DNA of 33,081 nt from Candidatus Hodarchaeota archaeon. Its GTDB lineage: Archaea; Asgardarchaeota; Heimdallarchaeia; Hodarchaeales; Hodarchaeaceae. The notes below the pieces were generated by a model. That model ran no database searches. It saw only the letters and a program-made list of their open reading frames with translations, and was not told the DNA's origin. Below, in pieces: positions 1,431 to 9,562 of this stretch. The position numbers were made by a program, and so were the translations under genes. The stretch is from the NCBI GenBank assembly GCA_016840035.1, contig JAEOTC010000069.1, positions 1-33,081 on the forward strand, written 5' to 3'. Position 1 is the stretch's first letter, and each line of letters opens with the position of its first letter.

Positions 1431-1811
1431 TTATTTCAGCCGTTCTGGGATATTCTCCCATATCTTCGGGTTCTGACGAACTAAAAATTCAATCGCATCA
1501 GAAAATGTATATCCAGACTTATTGACTTCTACTTTAATACGACTTAAGATTGTGTGAGCGTCTGGTCGTAATAGAATTGTCTTTGAACTCTTTTTTACCT
1601 TGTCCTCTCCAGGAATTTTGGATTCAATTCTATGTCGACCCTCATCATAACCTTTAAGGGCACTTTCTAGTGATTTCGTTCTGTCATAGATCGTGGCATC
1701 TAATTTCAGCAGAACTTCACTATAAGACTTTTCTTTCAGCTCAAATTTAGCCCAGCGAAGCATTTCCCATGCTTTACTAGAGATCTTTACATTTTGAGCT
1801 TCTTTCGACAC
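1431..1811 (-). CDS. Tandem ribbon-helix-helix-like (DUF217/antitoxin-like) protein, putative transcription regulator
   Basis: Two internal copies of a beta-helix-helix pattern: QNVKISSKAWEMLRWAK...SYSEVLLKL and KTILLRPDAHTILSRIK...TFSDAIEFL. Divergent from the Ubl operon. Confidence 0.6.
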   Translation of the reverse strand: MSKEAQNVKISSKAWEMLRWAKFELKEKSYSEVLLKLDATIYDRTKSLESALKGYDEGRHRIESKIPGEDKVKKSSKTILLRPDAHTILSRIKVEVNKSGYTFSDAIEFLVRQNPKIWENIPERLK

Positions 1812-1867
1812 AAAATCTACCTCTTATGATTAAGATATTACACTTTACCTTTAAAAACTTTATGTGT

Positions 1868-1935
1868 GTTACGTGTATTTCGTAAGTCTTATATATGGAG
1901 TGAGTTACGTAGGTTACATGAATTCCATGTAAGTC
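1868..1935. promoter_or_regulatory. Divergent promoter region with TATA-like box and two related palindromes
   Basis: TTACG-N7-CGTAA (1869-1885) and TTACATG-N5-CATGTAA (1914-1932), both framed as GTTAC...GTAAGTC. A third GTTACGT lies at 1904-1910 and TTATATAT at 1889-1896. Confidence 0.55.
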
Positions 1936-1980
1936 AGAAAAATGGGATTCGAGAACAAACGAAAAAAAAGTGAATAAAAA

Positions 1981-2334
1981 ATGAGTGACTTTGAAGATTT
2001 AGATTTTGATCTTGAAGAAACAACAACTGTAAAGGCTAAAACCCCTGCACAGTCAAAAACACCCGTAACTGGGGCAACCTCTGGACCAAAGAAGAATGTT
2101 TTCTTTAAATCTACTGTCGGTCCTGAGAGAACGGAAAAACTCTCTGTTGGTGAAAATACACCTGTACGAGATGTTCGTGACACTTTGGCCAATATTTTTG
2201 GTCTAGATCCTGATGACTTCCACCTTTCTCATGCAGGAAGAACTCTTGACGAAAGTGCACCAATTGGAGATTATGGAATCGAAAATGGTGATGAAATCCT
2301 CTTAATTCCTCATTCAACCGCAGGTTGGAGGTAA
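1981..2334 (+). CDS. Ubiquitin-like modifier 1 (beta-grasp; pro-form ending STAG-WR; acidic N-terminal arm)
   Basis: Ub-like pattern: VRDVRDTLANIFGLDPDDFHLSHAGRTLDE..IGDYGIENGDEILLIP, compared with Ub QRLIFAGKQLED..LSDYNI. Located upstream of E1/E2/JAB/RING genes. Confidence 0.88.
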   Translation: MSDFEDLDFDLEETTTVKAKTPAQSKTPVTGATSGPKKNVFFKSTVGPERTEKLSVGENTPVRDVRDTLANIFGLDPDDFHLSHAGRTLDESAPIGDYGIENGDEILLIPHSTAGWR

Positions 2335-2336
2335 TC

Positions 2337-2368
2337 TGAGGATAACCTCACCTTTTCCCAATTTTTCT
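2337..2368 (+). terminator. Short hairpin plus pyrimidine tract after Ubl1
   Basis: TGAGG-ATAA-CCTCA (2337-2350) followed by ccttttcccaatttttct. Confidence 0.35.
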
Positions 2369-2583
2369 AGAAATAAAATGATCCTTTAAATTAAAATTAG
2401 TCTTAAACTCTTCAGTTCCAAGTAAGCAGCATTAATTCGCAGATTCAGATAGATATTTATGGAATGAGAACGATGAAAATGATAGTATTCTCTCTACATG
2501 TTTTCAGAAGTAAATCGGAATCTTCTGCAATAGATGAGTACTCTCCAAAGCTTATCGTGGAGGATACAAGGGAAGCTGTCATT

Positions 2584-2931
2584 ATGTTAGAAAATGAAGA
2601 GTTTATTGAATTTGAAGAAGAGGAGGAGGAACAGAATGATCCCTCAATCCAATCGAAAGTTCCACAATCTAAAACCCCAACTGGTGAACGAATTTCTCTA
2701 TTTTTTAGGTCAACAATTGGACCTGGTGAAAAACAGGAGAAATTAACAGTTGATCCAGAAATGTCTGTGCGTGAATTAGCAGAAACAATAGGTGAAATTT
2801 TTGCTTTAGACCCACAGGATTTTCACTTATCTATTAGTGGTCGAACATTGGACTCGGATGATGTTCTATCTAATTATGATCTCGAAGATGGGCTAGAAGT
2901 CCTAATAATCCCTGTAAGTACCGCAGGATAG
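2584..2931 (+). CDS. Ubiquitin-like modifier 2 (paralogue of Ubl1, ends STAG-stop)
   Basis: Clear paralogue: FFRSTIGP, EKLTV, IFALDPQDFHLSISGRTLD, LIIPVSTAG. ATG 2584 gives 115 aa, close to Ubl1's length. The ORF-track start at 2464 is probably over-extended. Confidence 0.88.
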   Translation: MLENEEFIEFEEEEEEQNDPSIQSKVPQSKTPTGERISLFFRSTIGPGEKQEKLTVDPEMSVRELAETIGEIFALDPQDFHLSISGRTLDSDDVLSNYDLEDGLEVLIIPVSTAG

Positions 2932-2956
2932 TCTTAATACTAGAGGAATAACCATT

Positions 2957-4195
2957 ATGACAAATTTCACGAGTAAAGCTCTTACAAAAGAAGAAAAACG
3001 ACGATTCGATCGACAATTTCGACTTCCTGGCTGGAATCAGGAAATCCTAAAGCGAAGCTCTGTTCTCATTGCTGGAATTGGAGGATTAGGAGTTGAAATT
3101 GCTAAAAATCTCGCTATGGTCGGTGTAGGGCATTTAATACTCGTGGATTTAGATACTATCGAATATTCTAATCTTAACCGGCAGATACTATTCATTGGAG
3201 CCCCAGAAGGGGCCTCCAAGGCAAAAATGGCTGCAAAGAGACTCAGAGAGATAAACCCATTTATCAAGATTGATGCCTATGATTGTCCTTTACAAGATAT
3301 TCCCCCTCGTATTTACGCCGATGTGGATATGTATATCGCTGGTCTCGACTCTATTGAAGCTAGATCAGAATTGAATCGACGTGCGATCCATAATCAAAAA
3401 TTTCTCATAGATGCAGGGACTGCAGTCTATAATGGGCATACATACGTAATTTCTCCTTTCACCAATGCGTGTTTGGAATGCGATCCTTTAACCGAACGTA
3501 ATCAAGACCAGCTTGGTGCATGTACCTTAGTAGGAAAACCTCGTAGACCCGCTCATTGTATTTTAAAAGGTCAGCTTCAATTCGAGAAAAAAAAGGGCAG
3601 ACCAGTAGATATCCTAAATTCAAAAGAAGTGAATTCTGTGGTTTCATTTGCTAATAATCTCTTGAAGGAATATTTCCCACAACATGAACCGTTCTCTGTG
3701 AATCAGGTGATACAGATAATTGACAATCACGAGCCAACAGTTATCACCATTAATTGTGTGATGGCATCACTTCAATCCCAAGAGGCAGTAAAAATATTAC
3801 ATCACCTACACAGTCCACAGTCTGAAAATCGTTTAGGCAATATCCAATTAAACTATCTAATATATAATGGATTAACGGGAAAATTTTACGAAATAGAAAA
3901 ACCCCGCAATCCGAAATGCGAAATGTGTGGCCAGGAACGAACACCATTATTCCAACTTAAGGTTAAACGTAAGTACCGTTTAACAAAACTAATTCAAAAT
4001 TTTTCTCAAGAGAAGAAGTATCCAATTGACTCCGAATTTCCTCCCATGATGTTTAGGATTGATTCTTCTGAACTCGGTGACATATCTTTAGACCAAACAA
4101 TCTCAGAGGCTGGTATAAGAGATTGTGAAACTGTTCTCGTGACTGGTTTTGATGATGGATCACAAATATATCTCACAATAAATATAGAAGGTTAA
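2957..4195 (+). CDS. Ubiquitin-activating enzyme E1 (ThiF/MoeB adenylation domain, UBA3-like catalytic Cys, probable C-terminal UFD)
   Basis: RFDRQ, GIGGLG, DLDTIEYSNLNRQ, catalytic C189 in CTLVGKPRRPAHCI, Zn-binding CLEC/CEMC, C-terminal ~85-aa Ub-fold-like region. Upstream GAGGA. Confidence 0.93.
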   Translation: MTNFTSKALTKEEKRRFDRQFRLPGWNQEILKRSSVLIAGIGGLGVEIAKNLAMVGVGHLILVDLDTIEYSNLNRQILFIGAPEGASKAKMAAKRLREINPFIKIDAYDCPLQDIPPRIYADVDMYIAGLDSIEARSELNRRAIHNQKFLIDAGTAVYNGHTYVISPFTNACLECDPLTERNQDQLGACTLVGKPRRPAHCILKGQLQFEKKKGRPVDILNSKEVNSVVSFANNLLKEYFPQHEPFSVNQVIQIIDNHEPTVITINCVMASLQSQEAVKILHHLHSPQSENRLGNIQLNYLIYNGLTGKFYEIEKPRNPKCEMCGQERTPLFQLKVKRKYRLTKLIQNFSQEKKYPIDSEFPPMMFRIDSSELGDISLDQTISEAGIRDCETVLVTGFDDGSQIYLTINIEG

Positions 4196-4201
4196 GAAAC
4201 A

Positions 4202-4729
4202 ATGTCAATTCGAATTAAACGCATTGCCGAGGATTATAATCAGCTTAAAACTCTTTACAAGCAGAAAACGATCAAACAGTTGAAAGCTTTTCCAGGCGAG
4301 AAGAAGAGTGTCGAACATATTGCAGTACTCCTTGAAGGACCAAAAGGTACACCATATCAGGGTGGGAAGTTCAAATTGGAAATTAAATTTGGGCCAAACT
4401 ATCCATATTCTCCCCCGTATGTTAGATTACATACAGCTATCTGGCATCCCAACTTTTGGCCGAAACCTGATGAATACAAGGGGAAACGCAATATCTGTCT
4501 TGGATTAGTAGATCCTGACTTAATAGGAAAACCACAGGGATGGTCTCCATCTAAAAACATTACTACGGTAATTTACTCAATTCTAGCAATGTTTAACATA
4601 GACGAAGCTTATACTAATCCCCACGATGTATTCAACAAGAAAGCTGCAATGGAATATCTAAAAGATAAGGGTAAGTTTAAAGAAAAAGCTCGGAAAATTA
4701 CCAAAAAATATGCAAAAAAGAAGTGGTAA
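4202..4729 (+). CDS. Ubiquitin-conjugating enzyme E2
   Basis: GPKGTPYQGGKF, YPYSPP, WHPN (H82-N84), catalytic C99, WSPS. Confidence 0.95.
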   Translation: MSIRIKRIAEDYNQLKTLYKQKTIKQLKAFPGEKKSVEHIAVLLEGPKGTPYQGGKFKLEIKFGPNYPYSPPYVRLHTAIWHPNFWPKPDEYKGKRNICLGLVDPDLIGKPQGWSPSKNITTVIYSILAMFNIDEAYTNPHDVFNKKAAMEYLKDKGKFKEKARKITKKYAKKKW

Positions 4730-4747
4730 GTATCAAATGAGAATTCT

Positions 4748-5584
4748 ATGTCAACAGAAGGTGTTAGCATAATGCCAGAAAAAAAAGATTCTCAATCACG
4801 TAATCTATTTGAGCTTCTTCTTAGGGATACAGCAATGAATTATGATCCTGATAATTCCACTTTAACTTTAAAATTCCCAACCTCTTCTGAAACCAAAGCT
4901 CTTCCCGAAACAAAAGAAACTCTTAACTTAAAGAAGAATATATCACAATCTAAAGAAGCTGTCGAAGATATCGATGACTTAGACCCTGAAATCGATCCTG
5001 TTCGAGTAAAAATACAATTAAAAGCATATATTCGTCTTTGTCTTCATGCATTAAAGTATGCGCATTCATCCATTCCCCAATCTGAGTGGGTAGAAGTAAT
5101 TGGCCTCTTGACAGGTCATATAGAAAACGAAGATACTCCTCTTGCGTGTTTGGTGATAACAGATGCTTTTCCAGTGGGCCATGGAACGAATGTTAATGCT
5201 CAAATTGAGGACCCCCAGAGTATGGTTCGAGTTTTTAATGAAAGTAGAAAGAAAAACGAAATGATACTTGGATGGTACCATTCTCATCCTTCATATGGAG
5301 CATTCATGAGTTCAACTGATTACCAGACACAGGTACGATATCAAAGACTCGGAACAAAAGAGTCTCAATTATCAGCACCAATAGCACTTGTAATAGATCC
5401 AACTCGCATTTCCAGAAGGAGTTATGGATTTAAAATCTTCAGATTGAAAAAAGATTTGAAAAAATGGGAAGAACCTCGTTTTGAAGTTTTAAACTGCTCC
5501 CTAGAAAGTCTTCCGGAATTAATCAGCACCCTGCTACCTTTAGCAGAAGGAAAAACTATGTTCCTGGAATATGATTATGATTGA
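4748..5584 (+). CDS. JAMM/MPN+ metalloprotease (Rpn11/CSN5-like deubiquitinase or Ubl maturase)
   Basis: E116 in EVIGLL; GWYHSHPSYGAFMSSTD matches HxH-x7-S-x2-D; ALVIDPTR; ~85-aa N-terminal extension. Confidence 0.93.
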   Translation: MSTEGVSIMPEKKDSQSRNLFELLLRDTAMNYDPDNSTLTLKFPTSSETKALPETKETLNLKKNISQSKEAVEDIDDLDPEIDPVRVKIQLKAYIRLCLHALKYAHSSIPQSEWVEVIGLLTGHIENEDTPLACLVITDAFPVGHGTNVNAQIEDPQSMVRVFNESRKKNEMILGWYHSHPSYGAFMSSTDYQTQVRYQRLGTKESQLSAPIALVIDPTRISRRSYGFKIFRLKKDLKKWEEPRFEVLNCSLESLPELISTLLPLAEGKTMFLEYDYD

Positions 5585-5607
5585 GAAGATGAGGTCGTGA
5601 AATCTAT

Positions 5608-6714
5608 TTGGTTGGAAGAAATGTCTACATCTCTGTGGTTATCACTGGATTGGTCTTTGCCTTCTTAAGCCAAATTGTGAATCCAGAAAGTTTCATGTCA
5701 ATAACTCTTCTTTATTTTACTCTTGTTTTGGTTTTACTTATTAAATTAATAGATGAATGGCGTTATTATCGTTCGTATAATGCACCACTAGCTTCAGCTA
5801 TTTTTATTAGTATTCCGGCGATGATTGCTATCGGGGGTAGTATCATAGCATTGAATGCTACTTTAGGGGATTCTAATGATATTCTCCAGACTTTGTTTTT
5901 AGAAATGAATCTAAATTTAGAATTTCTTCAGTTGGATTCATTCTATCTTTTCTTAAACCTATTTGGAGCCCTCCTATGTACACCATTTTATGTGGTTTTA
6001 GGTATATTATTTCGTCGATACTACTCTGAAAGATACCCAAATATCTTCATATTCAGAAAGAGATTCCCTTCTGAGTCGATTATTGCATTGAATGTCATTA
6101 TTCTTTTAATTTTCTCTCTAATTTGGATGGAACAAAAAGCCATCGAAATTTCCGCCTTTATTTTCGTATTATTTTGTACAATCATCTTTATTCAGAATTA
6201 TATTCTAAAGATTGTGATTGTTCCATTTAGACGGAGTACTAGAACCACTCCGCGAGTAATACGATCACAAAGTAGAACAATCAGGTCTCCACAAGCATCG
6301 AGGGATGCTAGAAGATCTATTTCTGCGTCATCAAATGTAACACCAAGAGAGAACAGATTAAGTAGATCCTCACAACAATCGACTATTCGTGTAGCTCCTC
6401 CAGTGCAGATACCACGTAGAAGGAAAAGGAAACTTACTCCCGCATTAATTGCTAGTCTGACACCTGCGGGTCAGCATTTATCAAAAGATGATTTTCGATG
6501 TATATTCTGTTATGAGTTTCCAACCGATAAACCAGTAGTTATTTGTCCTCATTGCAGGCATCCAAGTCATGCAGATGAGTTTCAAAAATGGCTCGATGTC
6601 GCTAATATTTGCAGTCGGTGTAATAAACCAATTAATAATATAAAAATGATCAGAATTTCAGGTGCTAGTTATCAGAAAATCATTCAAATGTTTCAAAAGA
6701 AGTACAAAAATTAA
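5608..6714 (+). CDS. Multi-pass membrane protein with C-terminal RING-like finger (putative membrane E3 ligase)
   Basis: About 6 hydrophobic segments in aa 1-205, an Arg/Ser-rich linker, then CIFC-x11-CPHCRHPSHADEFQKWL-x5-CSRC (6499-6621). TTG start downstream of GAGGT. Confidence 0.82.
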   Translation: MVGRNVYISVVITGLVFAFLSQIVNPESFMSITLLYFTLVLVLLIKLIDEWRYYRSYNAPLASAIFISIPAMIAIGGSIIALNATLGDSNDILQTLFLEMNLNLEFLQLDSFYLFLNLFGALLCTPFYVVLGILFRRYYSERYPNIFIFRKRFPSESIIALNVIILLIFSLIWMEQKAIEISAFIFVLFCTIIFIQNYILKIVIVPFRRSTRTTPRVIRSQSRTIRSPQASRDARRSISASSNVTPRENRLSRSSQQSTIRVAPPVQIPRRRKRKLTPALIASLTPAGQHLSKDDFRCIFCYEFPTDKPVVICPHCRHPSHADEFQKWLDVANICSRCNKPINNIKMIRISGASYQKIIQMFQKKYKN

Positions 6715-6732
6715 ACAGGTTATGGGATAAAT

Positions 6733-7317
6733 ATGGCTATACGGCATACAATTGCTTGGTTCATCATGCTTATTGGCGTATCAGCTACTATTTTCTTTTT
6801 TATCCAAAATGAGGATAATCTAGCCCTAAATACACTGTTTATTTCGATTTATACCGCTATTACTATTCTTTATTTTCTTCGAATTTTTTATTATGTAGAT
6901 CATCATGCCACACTCAACGAAATTTACTTTCTATCTCTCGCCAATATCATTCCACTTGTAATAATACTAATAAGCCCATTCTTACCTATTTTTGAGGAAG
7001 CTTTATTGGATTTGGCGATTACTATACAGCCTTCTAATGAGCTCGTTGAGCTTCATATTGCAGTACCTTCATTGTTGGCATTTCCATATCTTATAGTCTC
7101 AACTGCTTTATTGATTCGAAGTTTTACTCGTTATCAGTTTATACGAATAACTTCTCAGTCGGAAAGAGGCCCCTCGGCTGAATGGACTGCAATATTTACT
7201 TTTTTCATCTTTGGATTTCTATTTCTCTTTGCAGGTATATTTGCTTCGGATCTCCTTGGAATTTTATACGGGATCTTTTTCATTTTCTCCGGAATCGGAT
7301 TTTTTTTGGGAAAATAA
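6733..7317 (+). CDS. ~6-TM membrane protein, apparent RING-less paralogue of the E3 membrane domain
   Basis: 18 nt after the RING gene on the same strand. Shares colinear motifs with it (see findings). Confidence 0.75.
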   Translation: MAIRHTIAWFIMLIGVSATIFFFIQNEDNLALNTLFISIYTAITILYFLRIFYYVDHHATLNEIYFLSLANIIPLVIILISPFLPIFEEALLDLAITIQPSNELVELHIAVPSLLAFPYLIVSTALLIRSFTRYQFIRITSQSERGPSAEWTAIFTFFIFGFLFLFAGIFASDLLGILYGIFFIFSGIGFFLGK

Positions 7318-7452: not shown

Positions 7453-7995
7453 TCACTGTATAGGTTTTTTCTTAAAAATCCTCACTATAAATCCAGCAAG
7501 AGAAATCGGAACCGCAAAAAATGTGAACACAAGGAAAATAGGATGTAAAAGAAACCCCATAATGAGAGCAACGAAGGCAGATATTAATGTTTGAGTAGCT
7601 CCGTCAGCTAAACCGCAAAAGATAGAACAATACACGCCATTAAGAAAACTAAACCACTTATTCCCCTGTTTCACTTGACAGTAATAACATTGTTGTTCAG
7701 GGTGAGTTCTTCTTGCTACTATTAGGATAAAAGGAATGAATCCAATGATTATGGAAGGAATAATCCATAGGGGTGAGACAATTAATGTTGCAGGCCAAAG
7801 AAACGCACTTGCTACCATCATAACAAATCCTGCTTGAGAAAGGGGTATTTCTAAGTCGATGAAGAATTGTTCTGCAGCATCTGTGAGAAAAGTTGTACTT
7901 AGAAATCCATAAATCGCTCCAATTAGGACATAAGTTAGAACAATGAGTATATAGTCTTGATAATTGCTGGATTTATTGTTTGACATATGTTTCAC
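7453..7995 (-). CDS. Membrane protein with a TRASH/FCS-like zinc motif
   Basis: Hydrophobic helices flank CYYC-x16-YCSIFC. Confidence 0.65.
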   Translation of the reverse strand: MKHMSNNKSSNYQDYILIVLTYVLIGAIYGFLSTTFLTDAAEQFFIDLEIPLSQAGFVMMVASAFLWPATLIVSPLWIIPSIIIGFIPFILIVARRTHPEQQCYYCQVKQGNKWFSFLNGVYCSIFCGLADGATQTLISAFVALIMGFLLHPIFLVFTFFAVPISLAGFIVRIFKKKPIQ

Positions 7996-8222: not shown

Positions 8223-8879
8223 TTGCCTCGATTAAAGATTCGAACAAAGAAACCATTGGAAACAATGAAGGAAAAGACTCCAACCCACGAGAACACTCCT
8301 TCTATCATCGAAAAAACTCCAGAGGATTCTAAAGAGCATTTTAAACTTCCACCCCAACGAACAAGAGAAGTTAAGAGTATAGAAAAAGAATCTGTCTCCC
8401 ACCCAACCCGTCGCGGTGCAAAGGACAAAAAAATCAAGGAAGAAAGCCGTAAAAACCTACTACCTCCAATGGAACACTCACAAAAGCGAGGTGAATCTTT
8501 AGTTCCGTCAAATAAAGGTAGTCTACCTAAATCAGTTCGTAAGAAAACTCCGGTAAATCGAAAGATTCCAAGACAACACAAATTCCCCTCAACACAAAAG
8601 ACTGTCCCTCCAACCCGAAAGGGAGTTTCGAAGAAGAAAACAAATCGAATTAGAAATAAAGCACCCCCACAGGTAATGAATGCTAAAAATTTGGATAAAA
8701 AGATTCTTCCTCCTCCAAGTATAAATCAAAAACGGAAAAAAGATACGAAACAATTTTTAAACAAAGTCCCTCCAAAATCTATAGTTAACAAGACACCAGA
8801 TAAGAAAAAATCGGTTCCTCCAACTATTATCAAGTCTAAAATTCCCAAAAGCAAGATTAAATTCAAAAAACCAGAGTAA
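8223..8879 (+). CDS. Lys/Pro-rich low-complexity, probably disordered, basic protein
   Basis: 218-aa ORF filling the gap, with GGAG before the TTG start and recurring hydrophobic-Pro-Pro motifs. No recognisable domain. Confidence 0.55.
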   Translation: MPRLKIRTKKPLETMKEKTPTHENTPSIIEKTPEDSKEHFKLPPQRTREVKSIEKESVSHPTRRGAKDKKIKEESRKNLLPPMEHSQKRGESLVPSNKGSLPKSVRKKTPVNRKIPRQHKFPSTQKTVPPTRKGVSKKKTNRIRNKAPPQVMNAKNLDKKILPPPSINQKRKKDTKQFLNKVPPKSIVNKTPDKKKSVPPTIIKSKIPKSKIKFKKPE

Positions 8880-9028
8880 ATCCAATTAAATTTCGATCAG
8901 AGTGATAGTTGGGTGCTAACCTTCAATTGATACAAAGGGAGAGAAAATCATATACCACAAATCAAAAAGATAAAAGAGAAAATAGATTATGTCTAATTAT
9001 TCTAGTTCCTTTTGAAGCGGTGCAGTAT

Positions 9029-9562
9029 ATGAAAAAGAATTACAAGGAAGCTTTAATTACCTTGGTTGGGGGTGCTGGTGTAATTCCTATATTATTAGCG
9101 ATATTTGTGAGTACTATTGAATTCGGCTATTCGATAGTGATTGCCTTTCCATTTTTTCTCATAGCTGGAGTTCTAAATGGGCTAATAACTGAAACTACAG
9201 ACAGTTCTGGATCTTTTATGTTGCATAAATCGCAAAAAGAAGCGATTATTACAATGGTAGGAGGAATAGGTGTGTTTGTTCTCCTGATTGGTATTTTTGC
9301 GTCATCAGTCGAGTTTGGATATGCCCTTGTTATTGCCTATGGATTTTTTCTTATTACTGGAGTTTTGAGTTCGTTAATTGACGAAAAATCAGAACCAAAA
9401 AAGAAGAAACAATTTCATCCACCTTCCTCTCTTGAGGAAGGTTTGATAAAAAGCTCTCCACTTGGTTCCAAAGGTGGAGCAAGCTGTTCTTCGTGTGGAT
9501 CTTCGATGGATAATGATAGCATATTCTGTCCTCAATGTGGAAAGAAATTTCTCCCCTCTTAG
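9029..9562 (+). CDS. Membrane protein with internally duplicated TM hairpin and C-terminal zinc ribbon
   Basis: KEALITLVGGAGV..EFGYSIVIA..FFLIAGVL repeats as KEAIITMVGGIGV..EFGYALVIA..FFLITGVL. C-terminal CSSCG...FCPQCG. ATG 9029 is preferred to the ORF-track start at 8909. Confidence 0.8.
   Translation: MKKNYKEALITLVGGAGVIPILLAIFVSTIEFGYSIVIAFPFFLIAGVLNGLITETTDSSGSFMLHKSQKEAIITMVGGIGVFVLLIGIFASSVEFGYALVIAYGFFLITGVLSSLIDEKSEPKKKKQFHPPSSLEEGLIKSSPLGSKGGASCSSCGSSMDNDSIFCPQCGKKFLPS

Follow-up and report, generated by a model that had tools for sequence, protein, structure and literature searches.

Locus organization

The window analyzed here is a stretch of 33,081 nucleotides (nt) from Candidatus Hodarchaeota archaeon, a member of the Asgard archaeal class Heimdallarchaeia (assembly GCA_016840035.1, contig JAEOTC010000069.1, positions 1 to 33,081 of the forward strand). 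Between positions 1,431 and 7,317 it carries an operon for conjugation of ubiquitin-like proteins (Ubls), together with a divergent gene. The operon is a variant of the known archaeal ubiquitylation operon and differs from it in that the RING finger of the candidate ligase (E3) belongs to a multi-span membrane protein.

The operon consists of seven genes on the plus strand. Two Ubl genes, Ubl1 (1981..2334, 117 aa) and Ubl2 (likely 2587..2931, 114 aa, in an open reading frame (ORF) of 155 aa that is open from 2464), are followed by a canonical activating enzyme (E1; 2957..4195, 412 aa), a conjugating enzyme (E2; 4202..4729, 175 aa), a JAMM/Rpn11-like metalloprotease (4748..5584, 278 aa), the membrane protein with a C-terminal finger (E3 or TM-RING; 5608..6714, 368 aa) and a six-helix membrane protein without a finger (6733..7317, 194 aa). 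The gap between Ubl1 and the ORF start at 2464 is 129 nt, or 252 nt if Ubl2 starts at the ATG at 2587; the remaining gaps are 25, 6, 18, 23 and 18 nt. A previous reading of the letters (the sequence-only reading) had described a complete Ubl operon, with seven ORFs on the plus strand, one divergent ORF and gaps of 6-25 nt from Ubl2 onward. All eight ORFs are present where it had placed them, the spacing is as it had described, and the completeness of the operon is confirmed by the Ubl, E1, E2 and JAMM domains and motifs and by the RING-bearing membrane gene. The next gene downstream is convergent and ends 135 nt beyond the last gene of the operon.

The divergent gene (1431..1811, minus strand) encodes 126 aa with a weak, sub-threshold match to Pfam VAPB_antitox (E 0.0016), and is a possible regulator of the ribbon-helix-helix (RHH)/VapB-like kind. 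It is kept in the same divergent position in three loci of the same genus or order (L038, L039 and L006). The divergent intergenic region is 169 nt long and holds a TATA-box-like element, TTATATAT (1889..1896, plus strand, read from the letters), which may serve as a promoter element.

Ubiquitin-like modifiers and enzymes

Ubl1 matches the Pfam ubiquitin family above the cut-off (2.8e-08) and, in the PDB, ubiquitin and the Ubl of Caldiarchaeum. Ubl2 falls below the same cut-off (1.7e-04, 21.7 bits vs 25.4 bits). The ATG at 2587 is the most likely start of Ubl2, since its homologues are about 115 aa long (115 aa as called in the closed same-genus genome L006) and since none of the tblastn alignments reaches upstream of residue 41 in the long ORF, most of them starting at 46-68; the gene as such had been recognized correctly in the sequence-only reading, but with its start placed at 2464, probably too early.

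The C-termini were compared across 21 loci from seven Asgard families, comprising 20 fetched regions and the closed same-genus genome. In all 21 the operon-linked Ubl ends in Ser-Thr-Ala-Gly (STAG) followed by 0-4 residues, and most of the extra Ubl genes at these loci end in the same way; the three exceptions are Ubl-like genes on the opposite strand. The residue before the terminal Gly is Ala, not Gly. Ubl1 is a pro-form with Trp-Arg after the Gly (STAG-WR), and in Ubl2 the stop follows directly after the Gly.

The E1 comprises an adenylation domain (Pfam ThiF, 7.8e-52), a catalytic-Cys region and a C-terminal extension. Its closest matches in the PDB are eukaryotic UBA1 (2.8e-35, 125 bits), the NEDD8 E1 (UBA3) and SAE2, and its GACTL motif aligns with the PICTL stretch of UBA1, which we take to hold the catalytic cysteine. 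All NCBIfam MoeB/ThiF equivalog models score the E1 far below their cut-offs, the model of the E1 that activates small archaeal modifier proteins (SAMPs) giving 68 bits vs a cut-off of 450; for the window proteins as a whole the NCBIfam scan returned only generic ThiF and desampylase matches, below cut-off. The E2 has a UBC fold (Pfam UQ_con, 9.4e-28) with an HPN motif and Cys99, which is flanked by insertions on both sides, and is closest in the PDB to the UBE2R2/Cdc34 type (3.4e-18). Its YPYSPP and WSPS loops resemble the E3-binding loops of the Caldiarchaeum E2 (PMC5654768). The metalloprotease (Pfam JAB, 1.9e-16) carries the JAMM motif HSHPSYGAFMSSTD, of the form HxHx7Sx2D, and its closest matches in the PDB are the Rpn11-like protein of Caldiarchaeum (6fjv, 1.1e-12), CSN5 and Rpn11. 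The catalytic motifs are thus intact in all three enzymes, as had been claimed: GACTL in E1, HPN with Cys99 in E2, and HxHx7Sx2D in the protease. Judged by these matches, the enzymes of the operon are of eukaryotic type. The features of an archaeal ubiquitylation operon found in the window are a Ubl with an exposable C-terminal Gly and the E1, E2 and JAMM motifs; the small soluble RING protein of such operons is missing.

An acidic tail of the type LEYD(Y/E)D ends the JAMM protease (5560-5584). It is kept in the homologues at L044, L046-L049 and L054, from several Asgard lineages, and might provide a docking site, perhaps for the basic tether of the E3 described below.

Membrane domain and tether of the E3

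The structure of the E3 was predicted with AlphaFold2 on an alignment of 24 sequences. In the model the membrane domain (5608..6228) consists of six long helices and two beta-hairpins, with block values of the predicted local distance difference test (pLDDT) of 72-95. Residues 208-273 are disordered (pLDDT <50), and a folded C-terminal domain follows. The disordered segment forms most of an Arg/Ser-rich, Lys-poor tether of about 75 residues (6229..6456), which leads to the finger (6457..6714). The loop charges fit the positive-inside rule, with 276 Lys and Arg in loops predicted to be cytoplasmic vs 34 in those predicted to be outside (24 sequences); the two termini and the finger are therefore predicted to be cytoplasmic, and the RING to face the cytoplasm in an N-in/C-in topology. 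The models and fold matches bear out that a disordered linker connects the only RING of the operon with a polytopic membrane domain, and they also support six helices each for this domain and for the product of the last gene, both of which had been claimed in the sequence-only reading.

No Pfam family was found for the membrane domain in scans of every family member. Foldseek returned no match in the PDB for the membrane domain of the E3 or of its paralogue (see below), a feature search of the ESM Atlas with the E3 membrane domain gave no usable match, and a profile search through 1.84 billion proteins brought up no membrane-domain relative from beyond this E3 family.

Across the 24 homologues the tether contains 59 Lys vs 368 Arg, a count to be read with the relatedness of these sequences in mind. 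The ratio K/(K+R) of the window proteins is 0.63, and the RING domain itself is mostly Lys-rich. A Lys-poor tether would be expected in a ligase, since free lysines near a charged E2 would presumably be selected against.

C-terminal finger

Nine residues of the finger are invariant in the alignments: C298, C301, C313, C316, H321, E324, W328, C335 and C338. When the zinc ligands are mapped on RNF24, C298 and C301 occupy positions 1 and 2, C316 position 3, H318 position 4, H321 position 5, E324 position 6, and C335 and C338 positions 7 and 8. Seven Cys/His residues of the finger are thus invariant and ligand position 6 is an invariant Glu. H318 varies to Tyr or Phe in homologues, and the invariant extra C313 could replace it as the fourth ligand.

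In a VIA fold search the finger matched a human U-box (3lrq; Z 8.8, 75 residues) and Ring1b (Z 7.9), and the best Foldseek matches are all RING or U-box domains, with probabilities up to 1.0. A finger profile built from the 21 loci matched the RING-H2 domain of RNF24 (3e-5), RNF4 (3e-4), EL5 (0.0045) and Hrd1 (0.17) in the PDB. The distant relatives in the library of 1.84 billion proteins match the finger only, and carry Pfam zf-RING_2 or Prok-RING_1. Of the E2-contact positions, I299 and W328 show no variation across the phylum sample and F300 shows almost none. In the small RING finger protein (srfp) of Caldiarchaeum the counterparts of I299 and W328 are I30 and W58, whose mutation impaired activity (PMC5654768). 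From the fold models, profiles and alignments we conclude that the finger is most probably a derived RING-H2.

The CPxCx[FY]P[AS] motif of the finger also matches the C-terminal zinc fingers of the intraflagellar-transport proteins IFT144 and WDR19 (PDB profile E 1.1e-4 and 1.1e-3). Pfam Zf_2nd_IFT121 gives a weak match in 17 of the 24 family members, and chains of intraflagellar transport complex A (IFT-A) are also listed by Foldseek.

RING-less paralogue

The product of the last gene aligns with the membrane domain of the E3 in hhalign with a probability of 94.3% (E 1e-07, 175 columns). Its AlphaFold2 model has the same layout of six helices and hairpin, the charge topology is also the same, and no Pfam family was found for it in scans of every family member. 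In the class to which the window belongs the paralogue is present in families f1 (18/21), f2 (2/2), f4 (24/31) and f6 (9/12), and the E3 in f1 (19/21), f2 (2/2), f4 (23/31) and f6 (7/12); neither was found in f3, f5 or f7. The paralogue directly adjoins the E3 at nearly all listed sites, and no paralogue gene follows the E3 at loci outside this class. By profile and model comparison, the last gene encodes a RING-less paralogue of the E3 membrane domain that is confined to the class of the window.

An extra gene lies between the RING-less paralogue and Ubl-E1 at one f4 locus (L040:10401-10994, plus strand). It encodes a membrane-anchored protein with about two transmembrane segments and a canonical RING (zf-RING_2 1e-07, above cut-off); the operon of the window has no such gene.

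Conservation and distribution

The genes for E2, JAMM and TM-RING are adjacent on one strand in 21/21 loci, covering seven families. The Ubl-E1 pair lies directly upstream of them, or a few kb away in one family. The sequence-only reading had named lack of conservation of the membrane genes with E1 and E2 in relatives as an outcome that would speak against it; the synteny survey of the 21 loci found them conserved and syntenic. In a 6.0-Mb single-contig Asgard genome the E3 and an orthologous E1 share a strand, with the E1 lying 1.7 kb upstream.

At E<=1e-25 the E3 was found in 185 of 400 Asgard genomes, among them 116 of the 135 in the largest family (f20), and in none of the genomes of whole other families. 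The operon is mostly single-copy and syntenic, and occurs in most members of whole families. A pattern scan for the TM-RING protein in genomes from 185,579 species gave 56 relatives, of which every named record is from Asgard archaea and the others are titled 'uncultured archaeon'. Among the records with a name are Hodarchaeum, Heimdallarchaeota B3_Heim, Promethearchaeum sp., Sifarchaeum, Borrarchaeum and Lokiarchaeum ossiferum, the last of which has been cultured. The system is not special to the source genome and is spread over many Asgard families. In other lineages the operon is flanked by housekeeping genes unrelated to it (GTP cyclohydrolase, amidohydrolase, RibD, RuBisCO-like), which give no clue to function. 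Cluster look-ups yielded no informative name or taxonomy.

In five closed or near-closed genomes that have no TM-RING (G134, G015, G002, G116 and G300) no E1 match was comparable to those of full-length orthologues (E ~1e-100). The best E1 matches in these genomes are at 1e-38 to 1e-45 and cover the adenylation domain only; G116 has a second, intermediate match over residues 25-336 (2.2e-43). Since these five genomes have neither a TM-RING nor a clear full-length E1 orthologue, the system was lost, or was never there, in whole Asgard lineages.

Comparison with described systems

In Caldiarchaeum subterraneum an operon encodes ubiquitin, an E1-like protein, an E2-like protein and the srfp, with Rpn11 adjacent (PMC5654768). 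That operon and the operon of the window have five functions in common: a pro-Ubl, a JAMM protease to trim it, a canonical E1 with its catalytic Cys, an E2 that has the UBC fold and PY and PS loops, and an E3 of RING-H2 type, which in the window is a putative one. The two differ in that the E3 of the window, with 368 residues, is a membrane protein of six helices where that of Caldiarchaeum is small and soluble, and in that it has Glu at ligand position 6; in that the tag ends in Ala-Gly, not Gly-Gly; in that the JAMM gene lies inside the operon; and in that a RING-less membrane paralogue follows the E3.

Ubiquitin clusters linked to the ESCRT complexes of endosomal sorting, with a soluble RING E3, are described for Asgard archaea (PMC9192718; 10.1101/2023.07.25.550441), and an E1-E2-RING cascade of Helarchaeia has been reconstituted in vitro (10.1101/2023.07.25.550441). 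Both these clusters and the window operon are Asgard E1-E2-RING systems, but at different loci and with different paralogue sets; in the ESCRT-linked system the ubiquitin is of the Gly-Gly kind and the E3 is soluble, whereas the window has an Ala-Gly tag and a membrane E3.

Small soluble RING E3s are described for Caldiarchaeum (PMC5654768 and supplement) and Helarchaeia (10.1101/2023.07.25.550441), and a membrane RING is not mentioned in the Helarchaeia preprint. In the literature on Asgard and archaeal ubiquitin operons no description of a membrane RING was found, the search having covered openly accessible papers, so that an earlier mention in a subscription-only paper is possible. The same holds for the consulted portions of the Asgard ubiquitin-ESCRT paper (PMC9192718), two structure-based surveys of eukaryotic signature proteins (ESPs), an ESCRT survey and a 2024 review, which do not deal with the E3 and describe no membrane RING in these operons.

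In domain order the E3 is like Hrd1, gp78 and Asi1/Asi3: a membrane domain with several spans comes first, then a disordered linker, and at the C-terminus a RING-H2-type finger on the cytoplasmic side. If the two paralogous membrane subunits pair, this would recall Asi1/Asi3, with the difference that the partner here has no RING. The sequence-only reading had seen in the E3 the architecture of Hrd1/gp78/Asi1-type ligases, and had allowed for analogy rather than orthology. Its interpretation is supported in part. The architecture is borne out, but no sequence, profile or Pfam link to Hrd1, gp78 or Asi1 was found, and the fold scores are at noise level. The likeness to Asi ligases and to those of endoplasmic-reticulum-associated degradation (ERAD) is one of architecture, and an ERAD-like function would be an analogy.

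Proposed function and alternatives

The operon probably encodes a self-contained system for Ubl conjugation of the eukaryotic type, at work on the cytoplasmic side of the cell membrane. In the proposed course of events the JAMM protease would trim the pro-form Ubl1 (STAG-WR) and so expose its terminal Gly, Ubl2 being mature as encoded. The E1 would adenylate the Ubl, bind it as a thioester on its catalytic Cys and hand it to Cys99 of the E2. The cytoplasmic RING-H2-derived finger of the six-helix protein, swinging on its Lys-poor basic tether, would then dock the charged E2, and the E3 would promote transfer of the Ubl to lysine residues of membrane-embedded or membrane-associated proteins, for turnover or for sorting. 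In the class of the window the E3 would probably act as a heterodimer with the RING-less paralogue, and the JAMM protease may also take the tag off again.

The proposal is supported by the complete set of Ubl, E1, E2 and JAMM domains and motifs, the RING fold and relatives of the finger, the conserved E2-contact residues, the predicted topology, the depletion of Lys in the tether, the synteny and spread of the operon in Asgard archaea, the co-distribution of the E3 with the E1, and the presence of the RING-less paralogue beside the E3. Several points weigh against this proposal. The finger is below every Pfam RING threshold, Glu stands in place of Cys at ligand position 6, and the basic 'linchpin' after the last Cys is replaced by Asn, Asp or Ser. 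The depletion of Lys in the tether could have another cause, such as binding of lipid or nucleic acid, and was counted in related sequences. The substrate class is deduced solely from the location of the E3.

The first three of these points would also fit a TM-RING protein with another role than that of a ligase, as receptor or anchor in the membrane or as the main substrate, the finger merely binding Ubl, E2 or JAMM while the E2 conjugates without an E3. The finger also gives weak matches to zinc ribbons and, in 15 of the 24 members, to a zinc finger that binds ubiquitin (zf_UBZ), which point the same way. The fold, however, matches RING and U-box domains and not a zinc ribbon, the top profile matches are active RING-H2 ligases, and the E2-contact residues I299 and W328 are invariant, with F300 nearly so; a main substrate, moreover, would not be expected to have a Lys-poor tether. 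On this balance a non-ligase role is improbable, though it is the strongest of the alternatives.

A more far-reaching version of the conjugation proposal is that of a heteromeric membrane machine, made up of the E3 and the RING-less paralogue, which recognizes proteins within the bilayer and tags them for extraction or ESCRT-type sorting. This is a doubtful extension. If true, such a machine would be a prokaryotic, pre-eukaryotic functional forerunner of ERAD or of endosomal membrane-protein quality control, with a distinct modifier that ends in Ala-Gly.

Another reading, quite unlikely, takes the membrane domain for a true homologue, or a forerunner, of the Hrd1/Der1 retrotranslocon of ERAD. 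The E3 and its partner would in that case be the two halves of a channel through which membrane or secreted proteins are extracted for degradation by Cdc48 and the proteasome. The succession of polytopic domain, disordered linker and C-terminal RING-H2-type finger is the same, and Hrd1 chains turn up in the fold searches of both paralogues: 9uav_B (Z 7.8 over 113 residues, 3.6 A), 9z0e_C (Z 6.5) and also 6vjz_B (Z 6.2) for the E3, and 6vjz_B (Z 6.6) for the partner. These values of Z 6.2-7.8 are, however, within the noise of helical bundles (Z below ~13 is common with this tool), designed helical proteins outscore Hrd1 for the partner, and Foldseek finds no match for either membrane domain. 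The Hrd1 RING matches the finger profile weakly (E 0.17), the E3 has six helices vs eight in Hrd1, and the search of 1.84 billion proteins found no membrane-domain relative beyond the family itself. Fold similarity to Hrd1 was rejected as evidence of homology for the noise-level scores.

There is little likelihood that the operon is an anti-virus defence of the Bil kind, or of the Cap2/Cap3 kind of the cyclic-oligonucleotide-based antiphage signaling system (CBASS), tagging viral proteins. Ubl, E1, E2 and JAB genes occur in such systems as well, and the adenylation domain of the E1 gives weak PADLOC matches to CBASS E1-E2 fusions (62 bits) and BilD (24 bits). The same E1 matches eukaryotic UBA1 far better (125 bits), PADLOC finds nothing for the Ubls, the E2 or the two membrane proteins, and the mostly single-copy, syntenic operon (116/135 in f20) lies beside housekeeping genes and not in variable islands. 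An assignment as a defence system was rejected, as PADLOC gives only generic E1 and weak JAB similarity.

That the Ubls are only sulfur carriers, forming thiocarboxylates as MoaD/ThiS or SAMP/Urm1 do, is least probable of all: the E1 is of the ThiF/MoeB superfamily, but its NCBIfam MoeB/ThiF scores are far under the cut-offs, it has the eukaryote-type catalytic-Cys stretch, no rhodanese domain was found in the Pfam scan, and the dedicated E2, RING protein and JAMM would have no role in sulfur transfer; an E1-only system of the SAMP/Urm1 type is ruled out by the E2, the RING and the Cys stretch of the E1.

Membrane tagging underlies ERAD, endocytic sorting and organelle quality control. Archaeal ubiquitin operons are seen as the root of the eukaryotic ubiquitin system, and the ligases described to date are small and soluble. 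With a membrane-bound E3 of the kind proposed here, ubiquitin-type tagging at a membrane is probably older than the eukaryotes. The parts of the operon are all small, and the genome record of Lokiarchaeum ossiferum, a cultured archaeon, also contains the operon.

Downstream genes and other Ubl loci

Three further ORFs lie downstream of the operon, and no link to it was seen for any of them: a 180-aa membrane protein without a Pfam family (7453-7995, minus strand), a 218-aa Lys/Pro-rich ORF (8223-8879, plus strand) and a membrane protein with a terminal zinc ribbon (8909-9562, plus strand; Zn_ribbon_3, 6.7e-06).

The finger of the E3 is the sole RING of the operon, as had been stated, but not the sole RING of the source genome, in which zf-RING_2 has nine more matches, and six of these exceed the Pfam cut-off. 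The genome also has five matches of ThiF type and five of UBC type, with three to four other E1/E2 loci. The source organism thus appears to run several parallel Ubl systems, of which the operon of the window would be one specialized system. Further loci with E1-type and E2-type genes lie on contigs C184 (~69.7-80.6 kb), C112 (~99.4-102.3 kb) and C114 (~36.3-37.9 kb). The locus on contig C184 comprises an E1, two E2-like genes and a 79-residue RING ORF (at 77452-77583), and may be of the ESCRT-linked kind.

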